In this document: piece by piece, positions 4,117 to 15,680 of the stretch
How positions within the stretch are numbered: the stretch's first letter is position 1
Layout of the letters: each line of letters begins with the position of its first letter
Virus record (IMG/VR): IMGVR_UViG_3300045988_122518
DNA: 15,680 bases
Strand: one strand, 5' to 3'
DNA from: a virus
Made by a program: the position numbers and the translations under genes
The notes under the pieces: generated by a model
Seen by the model: the letters and a program-made list of their open reading frames with translations, nothing else
Database searches by the model: none
Told to the model about the DNA's origin: nothing

Positions 4117-4710
4117 TTATTTCTTGGAGGAAGTTTCCTCGGTTTTATTAATTACTTTATATCCAGAACCGCTTGTGCGACGACCTTGAGTAGTAGGTTC
4201 TTCTCTTACTACACGACGCTTAGCAGCGGGTTCTTTCTCTACAATAGTATCTTCTTCTTTACTAGCGATATCATTAGCAATAGCTTTATCAACATCAAAC
4301 CCAGTTTTTTCCTTCAAAGCTCTACGCTTATTAATATCAGTAATAGGAAGGCTAACAGATAAATTCTTGATTAAGTCAATAATTCCAATAGGAGCAAAAT
4401 CAAGAGCATCTAAAAAAGCATCTAATGAGCCATTAAGAATTAAATCAGCAACTTGTTGCTCTGACATATTATATTCAGGTTCAGTATGAACATTAAGAGT
4501 ATGAGTTACTTCTGGCTCTAAAATTTGTAAAAAATTAGCAATTAATTCACGGCCGCCCGCCTGATAAGTTAACTTCTCTAGCTCACCAAATGGAATGCGC
4601 TTAGTTTCACCGGGCGCAAATTCACGACGCAAATTGGTATCAGGAATAGTATAAACAACTACGCTAGTGCTTCTATTTTTTACATTATAAATATCTTCAT
4701 TATTAATCAT
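4117..4710 (-). CDS. Hypothetical protein, 197 aa, with a basic C-terminal tail (…KRRVVREEPTTQGRRTSGSGYK…); no TAG.
   Basis: Intact ORF. ATG 4708-4710 follows AAGGAG at 10-nt spacing. Stop is TAA 4117-4119. It is the first gene after the capsid-gene terminator. Confidence 0.8.
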   Translation of the reverse strand: MINNEDIYNVKNRSTSVVVYTIPDTNLRREFAPGETKRIPFGELEKLTYQAGGRELIANFLQILEPEVTHTLNVHTEPEYNMSEQQVADLILNGSLDAFLDALDFAPIGIIDLIKNLSVSLPITDINKRRALKEKTGFDVDKAIANDIASKEEDTIVEKEPAAKRRVVREEPTTQGRRTSGSGYKVINKTEETSSKK

Positions 4711-4730
4711 TATTCAATTTCTCCTTTTAC

Positions 4731-4777
4731 TCATAAAACAAAAATATGGGGAGAGGGAGTTTAATCCCTTCTCCCCA
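4731..4777 (-). terminator. Rho-independent terminator immediately downstream of the major capsid gene (minus strand).
   Basis: Left arm GGGGAGAGGGAG (4748-4759), loop TTTAAT (4760-4765), right arm CCCTTCTCCCC (4766-4776). The stem is 11 bp with one mismatch. On the minus strand it is followed by ATATTTTTGTTTTAT. Confidence 0.7.
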
Positions 4778-4796
4778 TGGAATAATTTATATTAAA

Positions 4797-5903
4797 TTAG
4801 ACAGTACCGTCAAGGCGACCATCATAAGTGATAACCTTACCAGTAACTCCATCATAATTCCAAGTATACATCTGACCGAGAAGTGAAGTATCAACATAAG
4901 CACAGATGTTATTAGCGAGCATGCAAACTACGCCAACCTTCTTGTAAACCTGAATCTCACGAGAACGATCATAATTGTTGAACTCGTCAACAATAGTGCC
5001 ACCTTCAAAAGCAATCTTTACAGGCTTACCATCAGCGCCCGTAGGAATAACCCAAGCATAGCCAGGATCAATAACCTTACGAGTATTGGTTTCATCTTCA
5101 AAGCCCTGCTCAAGAATAATAACCTTAGTACCCTTGTAAGTGGCAAGACGACCATTATTCCAAAGCTCGTTCTTCATAGCTTCAGTATATCTCCAAGCCT
5201 CATGAGGAATCATCTTAACAGCAAACTCATAAGTACAATAAATAGTAGGAGTACCATAAGCAGAAGCAATAGTGATCAAACGATCCATAGCAGCTTCATC
5301 AAATCCGGCAGCCGCAACGCGGTTAGCAGGAGGAAGCTGATTGATAGAAGATCTAAGAGCAGCAGCGACTTCTTTATAAATAAGTTCATCCATACCATCC
5401 ATGATGATCTTGGTTACTTCACCAAAATCAACACGACCATCAAGGAATTCTTCGAAGCCAATCTGAGCAGCTCCGCCGATAGCGCTAGTACGTACCTCAA
5501 AGGCTTCATTCTCTTTAGGTCCGAGCTTGAAGACTTCATAAATACCAGCAAGACCAACGCGAGTTACAAACTGCTTAGCACGAGCACGATTATTAAGAGG
5601 ACGACGGAAAATAGGCTTATCACCCTGAGCGAAAGTTTTAACCTCAGCAAACTGATCATATTGCTGAATAACTTTCTTAGGAAGAACCTCATCAAGAGTC
5701 TGCTCAATCATAGAGAAAATAAGATTCTTATTTTCACGATAAAGAGCGTAAGTACCAGCCAACTCATTCATTTCATTACGAAGAGTTTCATTTAAGGCTT
5801 CATAACTAAGATTTTTTCCCTCATAACTATAAGCAACAGGAGCAGAAGGATCAGCCTTAGCAACTTGCTTCATAAGAGCAATTAAATTATTTTTATCTAA
5901 CAT
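4797..5903 (-). CDS. Major capsid protein (HK97-fold type), 368 aa; no in-frame TAG.
   Basis: Intact ORF with RBS AAAGGAG and TAA stop. The sequence (…RPLNNRARAKQFVTRVGLAGIYEVFKLGPKE…AMDRLITIASAYGTPTIYCTYEFAVKMIP…) is typical of caudoviral major capsid proteins. It lies downstream of the portal, a scaffold-like gene and a 305-aa head gene, and is followed by a strong terminator. The family assignment is from memory of capsid sequences, not from a search. Confidence 0.75.
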   Translation of the reverse strand: MLDKNNLIALMKQVAKADPSAPVAYSYEGKNLSYEALNETLRNEMNELAGTYALYRENKNLIFSMIEQTLDEVLPKKVIQQYDQFAEVKTFAQGDKPIFRRPLNNRARAKQFVTRVGLAGIYEVFKLGPKENEAFEVRTSAIGGAAQIGFEEFLDGRVDFGEVTKIIMDGMDELIYKEVAAALRSSINQLPPANRVAAAGFDEAAMDRLITIASAYGTPTIYCTYEFAVKMIPHEAWRYTEAMKNELWNNGRLATYKGTKVIILEQGFEDETNTRKVIDPGYAWVIPTGADGKPVKIAFEGGTIVDEFNNYDRSREIQVYKKVGVVCMLANNICAYVDTSLLGQMYTWNYDGVTGKVITYDGRLDGTV

Positions 5904-5920
5904 TATCCTTTTCTCCTTTC

Positions 5921-6838
5921 TTACTTAATACGCATTACCTTGACGCCCTTTTGACCATCAGGCATAGTATAAACCTTAACAACCTGCCAGGTCATTGAAT
6001 CGTCGCCAGTTTTGCTAAGAATACCCTTTGTAGCAGCAGAAGGAGAAAGCTTATCTCCAACAGCAAGAGTCTCTTCATTAATCATATTAGTAGTATAAAG
6101 ATCACCAATCATGGTCTTAAATACACGAGGAACCATAGAAGTACCAGATTCCATGAACTTCTCATGGTAGATACCCAACTTATGATATGGATCATTGGTC
6201 CAATTCATTTCATACATATCAGGAACATCAGTGAGAACCTTATCATAGTAATACTTTACAGGAACATTAGCAACCTGATGATTACTATCAAGAGTATATT
6301 CATTACCATCATAAGTAAATTTGCCGGTTTCATCAACATCATAAACACGACCAGCAATAGTAACAGTCTTTAAGCCCTGATCGGCAGAAACGGTCTGATT
6401 GATTAATTTATAGGTTTGACCCTTTTCATCAACACCATTCCAGAAACGACCACCATATTCAACCTCGGTATGCTCCCAATCATAAGGACTATAAACACGA
6501 GCCTGATAGTCATCTTTAATCATAGCAAATTCGCAGTCCCACTGCTTACTACCATCATAATGATCACGATAAAGCTTAATCTCGTTATAAACGAGCATCC
6601 ATTCACCTTCGCCAGTGAAGTTGACTTCACCGATACCATTACCATTAGCAGCATAGTCATACTTTACAAACTGACCGTTTTCAAGAATCTCAATGTCTTT
6701 ATTGGCAGGAAGTTGAGCATAGATTTGAGCATTTCTTTGTGCGGAAAGGTGATTAGGCTCGACCTGACCGTAACCAAACTCAACATACTTTGCCTGAGAC
6801 TTAATAGGAAGATTCTTATTCAAAAAGTCTTTAAACAT
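5921..6838 (-). CDS. Head-associated protein, 305 aa (possible decoration or auxiliary capsid protein); no TAG.
   Basis: Intact ORF. ATG 6836-6838 follows AAGGAGG at 9-nt spacing. Stop is TAA 5921-5923, 17 nt before the capsid gene RBS. Gly/Tyr/Asp-rich and beta-type composition. Confidence 0.75.
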   Translation of the reverse strand: MFKDFLNKNLPIKSQAKYVEFGYGQVEPNHLSAQRNAQIYAQLPANKDIEILENGQFVKYDYAANGNGIGEVNFTGEGEWMLVYNEIKLYRDHYDGSKQWDCEFAMIKDDYQARVYSPYDWEHTEVEYGGRFWNGVDEKGQTYKLINQTVSADQGLKTVTIAGRVYDVDETGKFTYDGNEYTLDSNHQVANVPVKYYYDKVLTDVPDMYEMNWTNDPYHKLGIYHEKFMESGTSMVPRVFKTMIGDLYTTNMINEETLAVGDKLSPSAATKGILSKTGDDSMTWQVVKVYTMPDGQKGVKVMRIK

Positions 6839-8439: not shown

Positions 8440-10089
8440 TTATTTCATTGCTTCTTTATTTTGAATAGTTTTTTCACTTTTCTAATCGTCAGGTTTTTCC
8501 GGACGCCCTGCCTCACCATTAGAAGTTTTAACAGTTCCAGAACCTGAGCTTCCTGAATTATTTTGAGTTTTATTATTAGATGATGAACCTTTTAAACCCA
8601 AAATATCTTCACTACCCATAGTAGAACTCATAAGAGGAGGAATCATAATTTCGCTTAAATGTAAAATCTCATTTTCAAAATGAGCTGCATTAAGAATAAA
8701 ACTCTACGAATGTCCAAGAGCAATCTAAGACAATAGTTTTGATTGTCCCATTTGTGCTTGTTCTTTATACATTTTAGAAAGTGTTTGATAATTATTCTAA
8801 GTAGTTTCTAATAAATAAAATCTAAAATTATATTTCTTATTACTACTCTTTTTTTCAATAATTCTATTAAAGAATATATTAAACTATAAAATTAAACTTC
8901 TTATTGTAGATTCATCATTTAATACTGATTTTTCTAAAGCCATATTACCATCAGTATTAAATAAATTCTATGAAATACCTAATGAATTATAAACACTACG
9001 TTCAACTTTAGCTAAATCATCTGTCGTTGTAGTAGTATTCTTATCAGACATATCAATAGAATCTACATCAGTAAATGTAGTTAAAACATCTACTCCAATA
9101 GCCCTCTATAACATCTAAACGGCATTATTATGGATATCTCTGGCTTCATCAACATCAAATATCAAATCACCATTTTTATCCATTGGGAGCTTTTGGACTA
9201 AAATTTTAAGCAACTTCTACATTTGTTTCTTGCGGTCAAGATCTTGCGCTGCATCTAAATCCATAATAGTAGGAATCGAATTTACAAAAATAGGAACATC
9301 ACTATTATTAATATTAAATTTAATACAATTTTCTGGCTCAAGAACATACCAACTACCAGTATGCTAGCATCCAACCGCTTCTTCTAAAGCAAGTTTTCCT
9401 TGCTTATATAAAACATAACCTTTAGCAAATTCTTCTGGGAATAATTTTAATACTTTTAAACGATAATTCATATCTCTAAAAGTATCAAAAAATCGCATAT
9501 CAAATTCAACAACTGGGGTATTATTTACACTATAACGTGTTCTACAATATCTAACTGGTAATTCTTGTAAAATTAGATTTTTCTCAGAAGGAACTATATA
9601 TCCATAATAGCATCCATTTTTAACGACTTGTAAAGCAATATCTCCACAAATCTTTTTAATATAACTATTATCAAAATAATTTAACATTCTATAAAAATCT
9701 TTTAAAACTTTTTCTTCTTTTACATTATCATCATAAGTCTCAGCCGCGATATACCAATCATAACGATATAAAAAAGCAACATAATTACAAACTCGTTGAT
9801 ATACACCACTTATATCATAATAAAAATTAGAAATATAACGCAAAGCATTTAAATCTTTTTCTGCAAGCGCGCGAAGCACATCAGGTTTCGTGATAATACG
9901 AGTTTGACCTGGGTATCTAATCTTACTATAATCACCAAGTTTTAAAATAGCGTCATCTAAAGTTTTTGTGCCAACTTTTATTTTTCTATTGGCATAGTCC
10001 ATGGTATCATTATAATTATATTCATAACGACCATTATAAATATCAAAACCTTTAGCATGAATCTATTCATTACGATCTTGCGTATCCAA
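8440..10089 (-). CDS. Portal protein, 549 aa, TTG start, 11 in-frame TAG (cta at 10063, 9364, 9217, 9115, 9106, 8968, 8884, 8797, 8725, 8704, 8482).
   Basis: Track ORF 9364..10002 is only the N-terminal third. The frame continues with no TAA or TGA down to TAA 8440-8442. Upstream, AAAGGAGGTGG followed by 7 nt and TTG at 10087-10089 is a much better start than the internal ATG 10002. An in-frame TGA lies at 10120-10122. It is the large gene directly after the terminase. Size and position fit a portal. Confidence 0.65.
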
Positions 10090-10102: not shown

Positions 10103-10459
10103 TTAATAACCTGCTAATTTCATTATATAATCATAAGAAATAAGGTTTTCGTCGGTATATGGAATCTCTATTAATCTAAAATCATGTAAAGCGCAAAAAC
10201 GTCTTTTTTGATTATCATTATATTGCTACTGGTATAAACCGCGCTTTCCACCAAATTTAGAACTGGCTTCATAATGCTATTTTCCCTAATACTCAATAAT
10301 GAAATCAATTTTTCCATCATCATCAAATATAACAAAATCAAAACGAAGCGGACGCCCGCTTGGGCTTTTTAAATCTGGAAAGATGTATTCCATTTTAAAA
10401 GGTAGTCCTGCTTCTTCTAAGATTTCTTCAATTTTAATTTCTCCTCTTGAAGCACGCAT
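10103..10459 (-). CDS. Small nuclease-like protein, 118 aa, between terminase and portal: putative PD-(D/E)XK / Vsr-like (DUF559-type) homing endonuclease. Has 3 in-frame TAG (cta at 10286, 10277, 10226).
   Basis: ATG 10457-10459 follows AAGGAGGG at 6-nt spacing. Stop is TAA 10103-10105. Motif …RPLRFDFVIFDDDGKIDFIIEY(Q)GK(Q)HY… resembles the (P)D…ExK/QH core of Vsr/DUF559 restriction-endonuclease-like folds. This is recalled from memory and needs an HMM check. Confidence 0.5.
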
Positions 10460-10471
10460 TTTCCACCCTCC

Positions 10472-12211
10472 TTAATTTAAAAAGCACCAATCAGCCGCAT
10501 TAAACTTTTTACGTTTTTTCTTTTTATCTTCTTCAAGTTTTAAATAATATAATCCATATTCAAAAGCCGAAAATTTATCTTTACGAATTCCGCGATTTGC
10601 CTATTTTAAAATAATATTAATACCTTCATTTTCTTCGCGTAAATTCATCATTTCTTCTTTTAATATGGAGGTTAAAGTAAATGGTTTTAAATAATCTGCC
10701 CTTTGTTCAGAAGTCATTTTTGAACCTTTTTGAGTAGCTAATAATTTTTCTTTAGCTGTTCTCTCATCTATTAAGAATTTTACCTTACCCGCTTGTAATT
10801 GAGTCTGAGCATTAGCATGACATTCAGTATTTATTGGAGCATTTGCTTTAATAACATACATAGCATCAAATTGAGTATTTGGTGTGCGATATTTTTTATA
10901 ATATCCATCATCATCATTCTCAACACCAAAATCAGGTAAAAATTCACCATCTTCATCATTTTGAGATTTTACCATATAATCCAAAAGTCCAATACCTAAA
11001 CCATTACCATCTATAACCAAAGTTTTAGCTTTATATTTATAAAATAATTTCTTTAATTTAATAGCCTGATCTTCAAAATGATCATCTGACATAGTATACA
11101 TATTTACTAAAGACTTAATAGCTGGACCTTGGGCTTGTGGTGTTACTTTAAATACACAAACTACTGAATCGCATCCTTTACGACCTACATCTACAGAAAG
11201 CACATAATAAGCTTGCGCGCCCGCACGTCCAGAAGCTTCATACTCAGGCTATAATAATTTTCTATTTCTATCAAAATGCTCTCCATTAAAGAAAGCATCC
11301 TCAACAGTTCCTGACCACTTAGATTCATATTCACGTTCAAATGAAGCTTCATTATAAGTTCCTTCATTCTTTTGGTCAGTAATAAATGTTTTACTTTGTA
11401 ATCCTACTGCAACAGGAGTTCGCCATGTTCCGCCTAATACCATACAACGATCGGGCTAAGTCACCATACGAACTAAGAAACCAATAAGTCTATCATAAGG
11501 GAATGTGCCCTTATAACCAGCAGTAGTAATATAAATTTGTGATTTATTTAATGGCTCTTGTTCATTAGTAGTGCCGTCTTTGGCTCTACGAGAAATTGCC
11601 ATAACAGGAATAATAACTTCACGAAGAATAGCATCATCAATACCAACACATTCTTCCATTAATCCACCATGACGACGTTGACCACGAGTGCTTTCACGAG
11701 CCGCAAGGTTATCCAAAACTGAACCATTTTTAAATACATATCTAACTTTATCTTTTCCTTCAAGAGTTTTTCCTCGGCTCCAATCAATTTCTCGATTAAA
11801 GCTTGGAATAAGTTCGCATATTTCTTGAACTTTATCATGAAGAATACTAGCACCTTGCTCTTTACCTCCAGAAGTAACGAACAAATGTGCGCCAGGATAT
11901 AAAATACATCTAATCATTAATGTCATAACAGACAAAAATGATTTAGAATAAGCACGAGGAAAAACCGCATAAACATACTGATAACGCATAACAGAACGGA
12001 GAAATACTCTCTAATAAAAATAAAAATTAAATTCTCCATCTTTTATTTCAGTGCGTCTTCCTCGCACCATAAAATCTACAAATAAATCAGGATATTCTCT
12101 CCAAAAGGCAACGTATTTGCGGATGGTAGGCATTACCGCTTCTACTCGCTCCGGTGATAGACCTATTTTTCTACGGCTATCACTTAACTACAATAAATCT
12201 TGTAATGCCAT
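10472..12211 (-). CDS. terL: Terminase large subunit, 579 aa, 5 in-frame TAG (cta at 12188, 12011, 11456, 11249, 10601).
   Basis: Track ORFs 11456..11989, 11249..11443 and 10601..11203 are one frame joined by TAG. The N-terminus has an ATPase with a deviant Walker A (VFPRAYSKSF). The C-terminus has an RNase-H-like nuclease (LSVDVGRKGCDSVVCVF … TLVIDGNGLGIGLLDYMV). ATG 12209-12211 overlaps the upstream TAA as TAATG. Stop is TAA 10472-10474. Confidence 0.8.
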
Positions 12212-13447: not shown

Positions 13448-14503
13448 TTAAGATTTTTTGGCCTTAGAATTTCGACAACTTTTACAAATACTATAAAAGC
13501 CATCTTTACTTGTTTTATTTTTACTAAAATATTTATTATGAGCTAATTTTATTTTACCACAACGACTACATTTTTTATATTTACCTTTTTCAACATTTAA
13601 ATAATAATTATCTAAATATTCATCTTCCGCAGTCGAAGCAATTAATTTTGGAATTTTATTACGCCATAAACTTGAAATATATTCAAGACTATGTTTAATA
13701 CCAAATTCCATTTGTATTTTCTCTTGAATGTCAATATTTTGTAAACCATCAATTTTATATTCAACGATTCTATCATAAAGAGGATAATTAGCTAAAGCTT
13801 TATCACAAAGCTTATCAAAATCCTCCATTAAATACCATAAGTCTTTATCATATTCGCCCCAACTATCTTGCTTTAATCGGGAATAATTATATAAAACCGC
13901 AGAACATATTTCAGGTCTTAATAAACTAATTCCATCAGGAATGGGAAAACCATCATCATCAAAAATAAATGTTTTATCATCTAATGGAATATAAGACTTT
14001 GATCTGGTTAATTTTGTAGGCACTATTGGACGACGATAAGCATTTTTCATAACATACTAATCTTTACGCATTTCAATAAGAGCCTTTTTAATAACAAAAG
14101 CATCTTTGCCTTCTGTTACTTTTAATTTAGCCTCCCAAACATTAATGGCTTCTCTTAACTAATTTAAACTTGGTATCTCTTCTAAATCTTTTTTTGTAAT
14201 TGTAATATGTGGTTGAAATATTGTATTTCTATTATCTGTAATTAAATTATAAATTCCATCTTCGCCATTTTCAAGTTGGGAAACAAGACCTTCAAAAGAA
14301 GTCTCACGCTTATTAACTGTAGCCATACGATTATCAGTTAATAATTTTTTCTCCTTTTTTTCTTGTTTCTCCATACAAAGAACCAAATAGTCTGCTAAAA
14401 TTTCTAAATACTTTTCAGGCGGATCTGGATTATCAGCCAAAATTTGTTCGACTAATTGATTTCTTTCTTCTGGAGTTTGTAAAGAATAATCAAGTTTTAT
14501 CAT
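13448..14503 (-). CDS. DNA-binding protein, 351 aa, with a C-terminal CxxC…DG…CKxC zinc ribbon. It is the first gene of the late operon and a possible regulator. Has 2 in-frame TAG (cta at 14159, 14057).
   Basis: Track ORFs 14159..14503 and 13448..14050 share one frame joined by TAG. ATG 14501-14503 follows GGAGGT at 5-nt spacing, directly downstream of a consensus promoter. Stop is TAA 13448-13450. C-terminus reads …KKCSRCGKIKLAHNKYFSKNKTSKDGFYSICKSCRNS. Confidence 0.6.
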
Positions 14504-14527
14504 TTTTTACCTCCAGTCTATATTTAT

Positions 14528-14556
14528 ATTATACTCGAAAAAATTTTTTTTGTCAA
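14528..14556 (-). promoter_or_regulatory. Sigma-70-type promoter for the minus-strand late operon: TTGACA – 17 nt – TATAAT, all 12 consensus positions matched.
   Basis: Reverse complement of 14551-14556 is TTGACA. Reverse complement of 14528-14533 is TATAAT. The spacer is 17 nt. The minus-strand gene starts at 14503 about 25 nt downstream. Confidence 0.6.
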
Positions 14557-14638
14557 GTTTCATTTAAAATTTTTTCTTTTTATATTTAAAAATTTTTTTA
14601 ACAAAACAAATAACTTTTGCCCAATCACTCTCCACGAT

Positions 14639-14667
14639 TTGACATTTCTTTATTTTTATTTTATTAT
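14639..14667 (+). promoter_or_regulatory. Sigma-70-type promoter for the plus-strand genes: TTGACA – 17 nt – TATTAT.
   Basis: ttgaca at 14639-14644 and tattat at 14662-14667. Downstream are AAGGAG and ATG 14697. Confidence 0.5.
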
Positions 14668-14696
14668 TATTATAAGAAAAAAGAAAAGGAGTATTT

Positions 14697-15089
14697 ATGG
14701 AAACTATTTTTATTATATTATTGAGTTGTGCGTTAGTAGCATCACTCCTTTTTTTATGGTTATATAGAAAAGCTTTTTGGGTATTGTACCAAAAAATGGT
14801 AAATTAGCAAAAAGAATTGAATAAATGGCCAATCGCACAATATGAGTGTATGCTATTGTTAAATATATTTTATAATTATGATTTTGAGGGAAGAGCAGTA
14901 GATTTTTCGCGATATGAAACGCAAGGACTAATTGTTTATAATTGTTTTCATGATGCAAAAAATAGTCCAAAAGGAATTACAAATGATGGAATTGTTTCAT
15001 CATTTTATAAACAAGCATTTGTATATGAATTAGATGATGGAACATTTGAATGGGAGGATATTGAAGATGGGATGGAACCAGCCTTTTGA
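14697..15089 (+). CDS. Small membrane-anchored protein, 130 aa, with an N-terminal transmembrane helix and 1 in-frame TAG at 14805-14807. Terminated by TGA.
   Basis: ATG 14697 follows AAGGAG at 5-nt spacing. The hydrophobic N-terminus reads METIFIILLSCALVASLLFLWLY. The frame continues through TAG into track ORF 14817..15089. Stop is TGA 15087-15089, so TGA is not reassigned. Confidence 0.6.
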
Positions 15090-15462
15090 AGTAAGAGGGA
15101 TAGACGCGGTAATATTTAGATTAGAACAAGAATATTTTAACGCAACAAGAGATAAAGACCCTTTTGTAAGAGATTGGAAATTATTTAAAACAATACGTAT
15201 TGAGCAAAAGGATAATGGGTCAAGAACAATTACTTATAAACCTTTATCAGACGCGGAAAAGGCTCAATTAAGCACCAAAGAAGAGCAAAGGGAATATCAA
15301 TTAAATAAATACAAATATGTATTAGAGCATCTAATGGAAAAATATGATACAGATACTATTAATAGATATATTGATAGTTGTAAATATAAAGATAAATTAA
15401 TCGAATATGTGGAGGAAAAATTAAATGCGGAAACCCCTCAGCCCCTTGAAGGCAGTCGCTAA
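15067..15462 (+). CDS. Hypothetical protein, 131 aa, no TAG; overlaps the upstream gene by 23 nt.
   Basis: GGAGG at 15053-15057, 9 nt before ATG 15067. Stop is TAA 15460-15462. Track ORF 15034..15462 is in the same frame; ATG 15034 or 15037 are alternative starts. Confidence 0.6.
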   Translation: MGWNQPFEVRGIDAVIFRLEQEYFNATRDKDPFVRDWKLFKTIRIEQKDNGSRTITYKPLSDAEKAQLSTKEEQREYQLNKYKYVLEHLMEKYDTDTINRYIDSCKYKDKLIEYVEEKLNAETPQPLEGSR

Positions 15463-15553
15463 AAAGTATCAGCAGAAAGCTACCTATTCTGCTACTTCTG
15501 GATTATACACTCTTATGTGGGGTGAAAAACCCAAGAGAGGTAGAAAAAAGAAG

Positions 15554-15680
15554 TCGTAATTTAAGATTTTAAATTATTCTTCGTAATTTGAAATTGAAAA
15601 TTGATTTGTTGTTTTAAATCGTACTTTGAAATTGAAAATTGATTTGTTGTTTTAAATCGTACTTTGAAATTGAAAATTGA
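15554..15680. repeat. Tandem direct repeat: 38-bp unit CGTA(C/A)TTTGAAATTGAAAATTGATTTGTTGTTTTAAAT, at least 2.6 copies (15582-15619, 15620-15657, 15658-window end), plus a degenerate copy at 15554-15580. The array continues beyond the window.
   Basis: Direct reading: copies 2 and 3 are identical over the available length, and copy 1 differs at one base. Each unit contains an internal TTGAAA/TTGAAAA sub-repeat. There are no spacers, so it is not a CRISPR array. Confidence 0.85.

Follow-up and report, generated by a model that had tools for sequence, protein, structure and literature searches.

Between the genes for the large terminase subunit (terL) and the portal protein, the 15,680-nucleotide stretch of viral DNA analysed here (IMG/VR record IMGVR_UViG_3300045988_122518, hereafter the window) carries a 118-codon open reading frame (ORF), ORF118. 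We hold with high confidence that ORF118 is a genuine late-operon gene of an SPbeta-like phage (YonF terminase, YonE portal) in which TAG is recoded to Gln, and that it encodes a ~100-residue Vsr-type PD-(D/E)XK domain. Probably, the gene was acquired at the terL–portal junction a single time, by the ancestor of a large phage clade, and has been inherited since under strong purifying selection; in other words, it would be domesticated and not currently mobile. As an overall explanation, we lean towards an old insertion of homing-endonuclease type that is now a fixed nuclease gene, probably linked to packaging. No publication describing this gene was found in a literature search.

The gene and its TAG codons

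With TAG, and not TGA or TAA, read through, the minus strand of the window becomes a gap-free, tightly packed series of long genes, all of which terminate with TAA or TGA. Because of this gene series, and because its product has 3134 database relatives at E<=1e-3, ORF118 is a real gene and not a chance feature. It is made up of 118 sense codons, from an ATG (10459..10457) to a TAA stop (10105..10103), and has no internal TAA or TGA in this AT-rich DNA. The features of the locus are the following.

10103..10459, minus strand: stand-alone coding sequence of the Vsr-like (EDxHD-type) nuclease, 118 amino acids with TAG read as Gln
10286..10288, minus strand: TAG codon 58 (Gln), at the "x" position of the EDxHD motif
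10277..10279, minus strand: TAG codon 61 (Gln), adjoining the catalytic His62
10226..10228, minus strand: TAG codon 78 (Gln)
10463..10473, minus strand: ribosome-binding site AAGGAGGGTGG of the nuclease gene, read from the sequence
10472..12211, minus strand: terL, YonF-type large terminase, 579 amino acids, 5 TAG codons, directly upstream, identified by tblastn
8440..10089, minus strand: portal gene, ~549 amino acids, 11-12 TAG codons, identified from the sequence and from homology to annotated portals in relatives

A preliminary description, made from the letters of the window, had reported an ORF with its own strong ribosome-binding site between terL and portal, and the sequence together with the homology of the neighbours bears this out. 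AAGGAGGGTGG lies 7 nt ahead of the ATG, and the terL stop codon (10474..10472) falls partly within it. The gap, given there as 370 bp, is correctly located but measures ~382 nt, from the terL stop (10472) to the predicted TTG start of the portal gene (10089), and is wholly occupied by ORF118; the portal ribosome-binding site AAAGGAGGTGG starts at the nuclease stop codon. A tblastn comparison with annotated terminases gives terL identities of 47% with Enterococcus phage H1, 46% with Geobacillus virus E3 and 23% with SPbeta yonF, and the Walker and nuclease motifs are kept in the TerL alignment.

That TAG stands for Gln in the phage of the window is shown directly, at the level of sequence, because CAA or CAG and TAG replace one another at the same positions in homologues. 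Among 31 distinct diverged homologues, the column of codon 58 holds CAA 27 times and TAG 4 times, that of codon 61 CAA 15, TAG 10 and CAG 6 times, and that of codon 78 CAA 16, TAG 8 and CAG 7 times. The 91%-identical homologue P0008 (three contigs, L001-3) has CAA at codons 58, 61 and 78 and a TAG at codon 79, vs CAA or CAG in the window. Over the 19 window TAG positions of terL, ORF118 and portal, 338 of the 542 aligned non-TAG codons (62%) are CAA or CAG, and the conserved TAG positions of these three genes are exclusively Gln or TAG in relatives. Position 61 is an ordinary Gln codon in standard-code relatives (L093, L094, L096, Enterococcus and Staphylococcus phages). ORF118 is, in this sense, an internal proof of the Gln decoding: a near-invariant Gln beside the catalytic His alternates between TAG, CAA and CAG. 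The Gln decoding advanced in the preliminary description is confirmed by these exchanges. Its quoted core, RPLRFDFVIFDDDGKIDFIIEY-TAG-GK-TAG-HY, is exact; the count of two in-frame TAGs is not, since there are three, the one at codon 78 having been missed. No tRNA gene, hence no suppressor tRNA gene, lies within the window; tRNA-Sup(CTA) genes have been reported in related Phassvirus genomes (PMC10607447).

Judging from the reading frame, a full-length enzyme is possible only with TAG decoded as Gln: a stop at codon 58 would give a 57-residue stump without His62 and Asp82. Standard-code annotation cuts the protein at precisely this codon, and public databases already hold pieces of 55-60 residues cut there (BFVD A0A8S5M8X6; P0150, P0166, P0167 and others), some misleadingly named. 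One of them is called an "RmuC family protein", a misannotation caused by recoding.

Recoded and standard-code phages (L170; L093, L094, L096) are intermixed within the clade; recoding was therefore gained or lost within it after the nuclease had been acquired. L170 has a terL free of TAG, and a TAG serves as the genuine stop of its nuclease gene (L170 5180-5260). An apparent nuclease–portal fusion in this genome was rejected, since it arises when TAG is translated as Gln in a relative that uses the standard code.

The use of TAG varies along the window. Four structural genes (1582-2178 and 4117-6838, minus strand) are without any TAG, including a YonB-like major capsid candidate (4797-5903). 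The two genes over 4797-6838 favour CAG over CAA and lie in a stretch of higher GC content (0.37-0.43, vs ~0.28-0.32). In the other genes whose reading frame was checked, TAG makes up 17-67% of Gln-type codons. The recoded codon appears to be avoided by the most highly expressed genes.

The nuclease domain and its predicted active site

The predicted fold and the PHROG profiles support the assignment of the ORF118 product to the PD-(D/E)XK nucleases of the Vsr/DUF559/DUF2726 group, in agreement with the PD-(D/E)XK or Vsr-like endonuclease initially proposed. Residues 3-108 match positions 60-159 of the 187 positions of PHROG 9084, "homing endonuclease" (E 1e-26 with TAG read as Gln, 9.3e-24 with TAG read as X). 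Further matches are to phrog_559 (E 1.6e-26) and to phrog_7140, "intron encoded nuclease" (E 1.3e-16). Translation of TAG as X weakens the PHROG E-values by about three orders of magnitude and leaves the matches in place. An AlphaFold2 model built from a 65-sequence alignment (pLDDT 96.2) has an alpha-beta-beta-beta-alpha-beta core, and its structural matches in BFVD are the C-terminal domains of viral "VSR homing endonuclease" and "DUF2726" proteins. In the PD-(D/E)XK survey of Steczkiewicz et al. (2012), Vsr, DUF559 and DUF2726 (1cw0, 3hrl, 3r3p) together form group 58 (PMC3424549).

Pfam gives a more restricted picture. DUF559 (PF04480) and Vsr (PF03852), the families named at the outset, give no match to the ORF118 product at E<=1 with TAG as Gln or as X, and none of 65 diverse relatives matches either at E<=0.01. 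The sole Pfam family with a credible match is DUF2726 (PF10881), over positions 58-99 of a 126-position profile; 45 of the 65 relatives match it at E<=0.01 and several homologues of 87-97% identity carry a precomputed PF10881 match. No match of the product was found to HNH families of Pfam, to NCBIfam or to PADLOC.

A search with P0001, 99% identical to the window protein, collects 11,878 cluster representatives of the domain family at E<=1e-3. The family has two forms, a short one of 110-135 residues and a long one of 230-510 residues in which the nuclease domain is C-terminal and is preceded by zinc-finger or CapR-type regions. In longer relatives it forms the nuclease part of phage homing endonucleases of the EDxHD, I-Bth0305I or "DUF2726" type. 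The ORF118 product is a bare catalytic domain: the nuclease domain covers residues ~4-115 of 118, and no N-terminal NUMOD or helix-turn-helix (HTH)-type DNA-binding region is present in the protein. The long form includes the intron-encoded protein inside terL of Staphylococcus phage phiIBB-SEP1. A 192-residue long-form paralogue with a Cys-rich N-terminus and IEYDGEQH in its nuclease domain was also observed in L079 (123-698, minus strand), L080 and L081. It sits ~3.3 kb upstream of terL, and the short gene is present at the junction as well.

The positions of the putative active site are listed below.

10205..10339, minus strand: catalytic core, codons 41-85, from conservation in 65 relatives and the I-Bth0305I alignment
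10337-10339, minus strand: Asp41, catalytic core
10292-10294, minus strand: Glu56, catalytic core
10274-10276, minus strand: His62, catalytic core
10214-10216, minus strand: Asp82, catalytic core
10205-10207, minus strand: Lys85, catalytic core
10439..10441, minus strand: Glu7, candidate for the leading "E" of EDxHD, equivalent to I-Bth0305I Glu170 and Vsr Glu25, from hhalign and conservation

D41, G59, H62, D82 and K85 are invariant in the 65 diverse relatives, E56 and Q61 are each found in 64 and E7 in 52. Position 58 is Q in 46, D in 15, N in 3 and H in 1. The two TAGs noticed at the outset do lie within the catalytic strand, E56-Y-Q58-G-K-Q61-H62, both in columns where Gln is the consensus, so that their placement inside a putative catalytic motif stands. 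The signature "IEvDGxQH", initially proposed for that motif, is not the consensus of the ORF118 family, which reads IEYQGxQHY.

The reference for these residues is the EDxHD motif of I-Bth0305I, made up of E170, D196, N208 (the x), H213 and D222 (Taylor et al., 2011; PMC3239194). Its counterparts in Vsr are E25, D51, H64, H69 and D97, and a conserved acidic residue stands two positions ahead of x in the EDxHD family (PMC3239194). The I-Bth0305I sequence, taken from the genome of phage 0305phi8-36, was aligned to the family profile by hhalign; in this weak match E7 pairs with E170, D41 with D196, E56 with E206, Q58 with N208, D82 with D222 and K85 with K225. H62 falls one residue off H213, the loop being one residue shorter. 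Given the weak score, the residue equivalences rest on motif order plus fold, not on superposed coordinates. By alignment and motif order together, a composite EDxHD set is present, with E7, D41, Q58 as x, H62 and D82. Asp41 would be a metal ligand (equivalent to Vsr Asp51) and His62 the general base (Vsr His69); Asp82 would correspond to Vsr Asp97 and Gln58 to Vsr His64 and I-Bth0305I Asn208, while Glu7, Glu56 and Lys85 would complete the predicted active site. Because this site is intact, an active, Mg2+-dependent endonuclease is predicted.

ORF118 thus shares with I-Bth0305I the ordered set E...D...E-x-(N/Q/D)-G...H...D-x-x-K, and, like the EDxHD family, including phage Hef-type enzymes, it is phage-encoded and located among essential conserved genes (PMC3239194). 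It differs in consisting of a ~100-residue catalytic domain alone, without an N-terminal NUMOD/HTH or zinc-finger region, in lying outside any intron or intein, and in being fixed in its clade, not sporadic. An insertion of ~10 residues (YEASSKFGGKRGLYQQQ) also separates the last Asp from the His, and the Gly–His spacing is shorter by one residue. With Escherichia coli Vsr (PDB 1cw0) the identity is 14%, without a Pfam Vsr match. Vsr has a zinc site as well as the intercalating Trp68 and Trp86 for recognition of the T:G mismatch (PMC3239194); no counterpart of these was noticed in the ORF118 sequence, without a residue-by-residue test.

Fixation of the gene at the terL–portal junction

Two scans of viral contigs define the distribution of the gene. 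A terL-based scan gave 80 loci (TerL identity 67-99%), and an ORF118 homologue lies between terL and portal in 79 of the 79 that reach past terL. A profile-based scan extended the range to TerL proteins ~41-45% identical to a distant member and gave 79 further loci, 12 on contigs already seen; wherever the downstream sequence was long enough (75 loci), the nuclease gene stands at the terL–portal junction. A single-protein locus search with the L096 TerL returned no loci. Together, the two scans cover about 142 distinct contigs, with TerL identities down to ~40%, and the gene is found in ~142/142 related loci, without any empty site or pseudogene among them. The same arrangement occurs in three standard-code lineages (L093, L094, L096), reached through nuclease homologues of 45-50% identity, and the terL–nuclease–portal order is also that of Phass-1. 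The cultured Enterococcus phages EF1, EF5, H1 and VRE9_1-4 carry an orthologue, which in EF1, H1 and the VRE9 phages has 122 residues and is encoded immediately ahead of the portal gene; in VRE9_3 it lies between terL and portal, is 50% identical and is annotated "homing endonuclease" (phrog 9084).

Outside this clade the junction is empty: terL abuts portal in Geobacillus virus E3 and its relatives, Brevibacillus Sundance, Bacillus FADO, Tsamsa, Lactococcus 949 and SPbeta, and the nuclease domain is not in the terL–portal locus of any of these outgroups. The insertion therefore took place at the terL–portal junction. Comparison of junctions in related phages, as initially suggested, thus favours an insertion but, with no empty site among the related loci, not a sporadic one. 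All nuclease-carrying phages moreover share a 4-residue deletion in TerL, just after the first catalytic Asp of its nuclease domain.

Window ~11190-11200 (terL codons ~337-341, "SVDVGRKG"): TerL deletion, DV----GR vs DVARxEGK in gene-less phages

This deletion, common to all carriers and absent from the outgroups, supports, as a sequence marker, a single acquisition of the nuclease.

Selection on the gene was evaluated by comparing the window with 13 diverged relatives, using the proportions of synonymous (pS) and non-synonymous (pN) differences.

ORF118: pS 0.51-0.88, pN 0.02-0.18
terL: pS 0.58-0.74, pN 0.08-0.22
portal: pS 0.54-0.77, pN 0.17-0.31

The synonymous sites of ORF118 are saturated, as are those of the flanking genes, and omega is 0.02-0.08 where dS can be estimated, lower than for terL. 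Mean amino-acid distances over 46 distinct modules give the same ranking.

ORF118: 0.133, the most conserved segment
TerL halves: 0.196 and 0.236
portal halves: 0.255 and 0.368

The pairwise distances of ORF118 correlate with those of its neighbours at 0.52-0.74, to be set beside 0.56 for the terL halves and 0.68 for the portal halves. In 12 of the 13 diverged pairs, nucleotide identity over ORF118 is 0.69-0.81, equal to or modestly above that of the terL 3' end. On these sequence comparisons, the high protein identity is the mark of purifying selection over a long co-inheritance and not of recent spread; recent horizontal spread as its cause was rejected in view of the saturated synonymous sites. 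A recombination breakpoint hot spot at ORF118 was likewise rejected, mosaicism being spread across the whole module.

Sporadic presence and a phylogeny decoupled from that of the flanks, the hallmarks of homing endonuclease genes (HEGs), were looked for and not found in the ORF118 homologues. Universal presence and strong purifying selection therefore designate a permanent gene of the clade and not a sporadic selfish insert. The latter had been anticipated in the preliminary description; by the test proposed there, the claim does not hold for a gene fixed in all 79/79 and 75/75 loci. In short, ORF118 belongs to a known group of nucleases, but its state is unusual: it consists of the domain alone, is fixed and is better conserved than the terminase.

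Truly sporadic genes do exist at this place. An HNH-type ORF interrupts the 3' part of terL in L049 (5724-6596), a GIY-YIG ORF lies between terL and nuclease in L051 (5790-6530) and another between nuclease and portal in L057 (6138-6833), and in L094 (1225-2301) terL is split by a DUF723 protein with a second copy of the nuclease domain (a long-form paralogue). These rare mobile endonuclease genes contrast with the universal short nuclease gene. L070 (5735-7266), as well as L071 and L072, has two cargo genes between terL and nuclease, encoding a 359-residue protein and a 162-residue protein with a cytidylyltransferase-like GxFxxxHxGH motif. IMGVR_UViG_3300032167_000002 (402 kb) holds two different terL–nuclease–portal modules, L026 and L039, whose TerL are 87% and 76% identical to that of the window; two related phages have probably been joined in it, as a chimera or by concatenation during assembly.

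As to expression signals, promoter-like and terminator-like sites are not more frequent in the window than in shuffled sequences. A GC-rich 16-nt hairpin or palindrome inside ORF118 (AAGCGGGCGTCCGCTT on the coding strand, 10346-10361, codons ~33-38) has a terminator-like score on both strands and is seen in close relatives only. It was rejected as a functional feature, since it is not conserved in diverged homologues, and is probably incidental. Gene orientation turns to the plus strand near 14500 (window 14480-15680), where the sign of the GC skew flips; a divergent promoter or module boundary is probable in this region.

Origin and present role

The clade concerned would include the gut phages of the window, Phassvirus, the Enterococcus phages EF1/H1/VRE9 and many standard-code relatives. 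In its ancestor, a nuclease gene of homing-endonuclease type would have been inserted, having arrived as, or later shrunk to, a bare catalytic domain, and would then have been fixed and retained as a core gene alongside terL and portal. Position, tight packing with these two genes and TAG content suggest late co-expression with packaging genes. The most likely present function, which we put forward tentatively and at less than even odds, is a role in genome maturation or packaging. The protein would be a Mg2+-dependent, probably dimeric endonuclease or nickase, synthesized alongside terminase and portal, that would act on replicated phage DNA, for instance to cut, nick or debranch the concatemers supplied to the packaging motor. 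HNH endonucleases reportedly partner terminase in HK97-like and staphylococcal cos phages. The packaging hypothesis is built by analogy on HK97 gp74-type HNH proteins, which are likewise small accessory nucleases whose gene is conserved beside terminase and portal; however, a beta-beta-alpha-Me HNH enzyme and a Vsr-like PD-(D/E)XK domain are unrelated in fold and motif, and what is seen here is conserved adjacency to terL and portal.

Several observations weigh against a fixed, packaging-linked nuclease of homing-endonuclease descent. The outgroups manage DNA packaging without the gene, which is therefore no generic requirement, and TerL keeps its nuclease motifs in phages with and without it; a nuclease compensating for a TerL deprived of its own activity was rejected on this last ground. 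The product is mildly acidic by residue count and has no DNA-binding module. Its DUF2726 match scores 23.6 bits, below the gathering cut-off of 24.7 (E 4.6e-5), and the hhalign match to I-Bth0305I, in a sensible register over 82 columns, has E 0.021 and a probability of 2.3%. Sequence searches of the PDB (phmmer with the single protein, hmmsearch with two profiles) returned nothing relevant, 3r3p included. Finally, in L078, the exception among the 13 diverged pairs, nucleotide identity climbs locally across ORF118 and the 3' end of terL; occasional local exchange or gene conversion does occur at the locus, to judge from this sequence.

Among the alternatives, an active free-standing homing or competition endonuclease, although unlikely, comes first. 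A dimer of the catalytic domain would cut at a site within or close to the terL–portal junction of gene-less co-infecting relatives, driving the inheritance of the gene or excluding a competitor, and repeated meetings with gene-less phages would account for the conservation. In profile and structure, the closest matches are indeed homing endonucleases, and the same domain is the C-terminal module of the intron-encoded protein in phiIBB-SEP1 terL and of the gene splitting L094 terL. As a promoter-less cassette flanked by two conserved essential genes, ORF118 has the position typical of free-standing HEGs (PMC2988022), I-Bth0305I draws its specificity mostly from the central 14-bp pseudopalindrome at the cleavage site (PMC3239194), gene-less junctions occur in outgroups, and L078 has a conversion-like local tract. 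However, the absence of empty sites and pseudogenes in ~142/142 loci, synonymous saturation with an omega below that of terL, and co-inheritance with the flanks are at odds with homing, as is a length of 118 residues without a DNA-binding domain. In addition, empty-junction phages, with only ~30-46% TerL identity, are too diverged as recombination partners. The free-standing T4 seg and mob genes, too, are cassettes without a promoter that lie among conserved genes in the orientation of their neighbours (PMC2988022), but they encode proteins of 200-250 residues with DNA-binding domains and are sporadic among relatives, whereas all members of its clade have ORF118, which changes less quickly than terL.

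We give a smaller chance to an active nuclease unrelated to packaging (host DNA degradation or nicking, counter-defence), for which the location would be merely an insertion site. Intact catalytic residues under strong selection would fit such a role, TerL with its own nuclease motifs leaves no packaging deficit to fill, and T4 homing endonucleases can gain host-beneficial roles, as indicated for SegB (PMC13096335). Host-takeover nucleases, however, are usually early, whereas this gene is packed between terL and portal with TAG codons like both; there is no PADLOC match, and synteny at the packaging junction is absolutely fixed over deep divergence.

A catalytically inactive derivative of a nuclease fold, with a structural or adaptor function in packaging or head assembly, is improbable. 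Gln stands at the "x" position in place of the canonical Asp or His, and conservation of this small protein spans its whole length rather than the active site only. Yet there is little or no variation at D41, E56, H62, D82 and K85 in the short forms or in the long ones, the latter being bona fide endonucleases, and "x" is Asn in the active I-Bth0305I, so that Gln is no sign of inactivation (PMC3239194). A pseudogene with three true stops, as suggested by the break of the ORF at codon 58 under the standard code and by the truncated database entries, is excluded for practical purposes by the TAG/CAA/CAG exchange and omega values of 0.02-0.08, together with the lack of TAA and TGA and the window-wide read-through that restores full-length terL, portal and other genes.

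Under the explanation that we prefer, an old insertion turned fixed gene, an insert that looks like a textbook selfish element, and that is named "homing endonuclease" by similarity, can be fixed and slower-evolving than the terminase beside it, which is a warning against annotation from family name alone. The finding suggests that a widespread group of gut and Firmicutes phages has, linked to its packaging module, a selectable nuclease function not yet characterised, and the orthologue in cultured Enterococcus phages makes this function genetically tractable. More speculatively, and with odds well short of even, the homing-endonuclease-derived domain could be a domesticated, obligatory third component of the terminase–portal packaging module across a large SPbeta-like phage clade, where it would cut, nick or debranch the packaging substrate, its synthesis being gated by TAG-to-Gln suppression at the catalytic strand in the recoded members. 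If so, it would represent a Vsr-fold counterpart of the HNH–terminase partnership.

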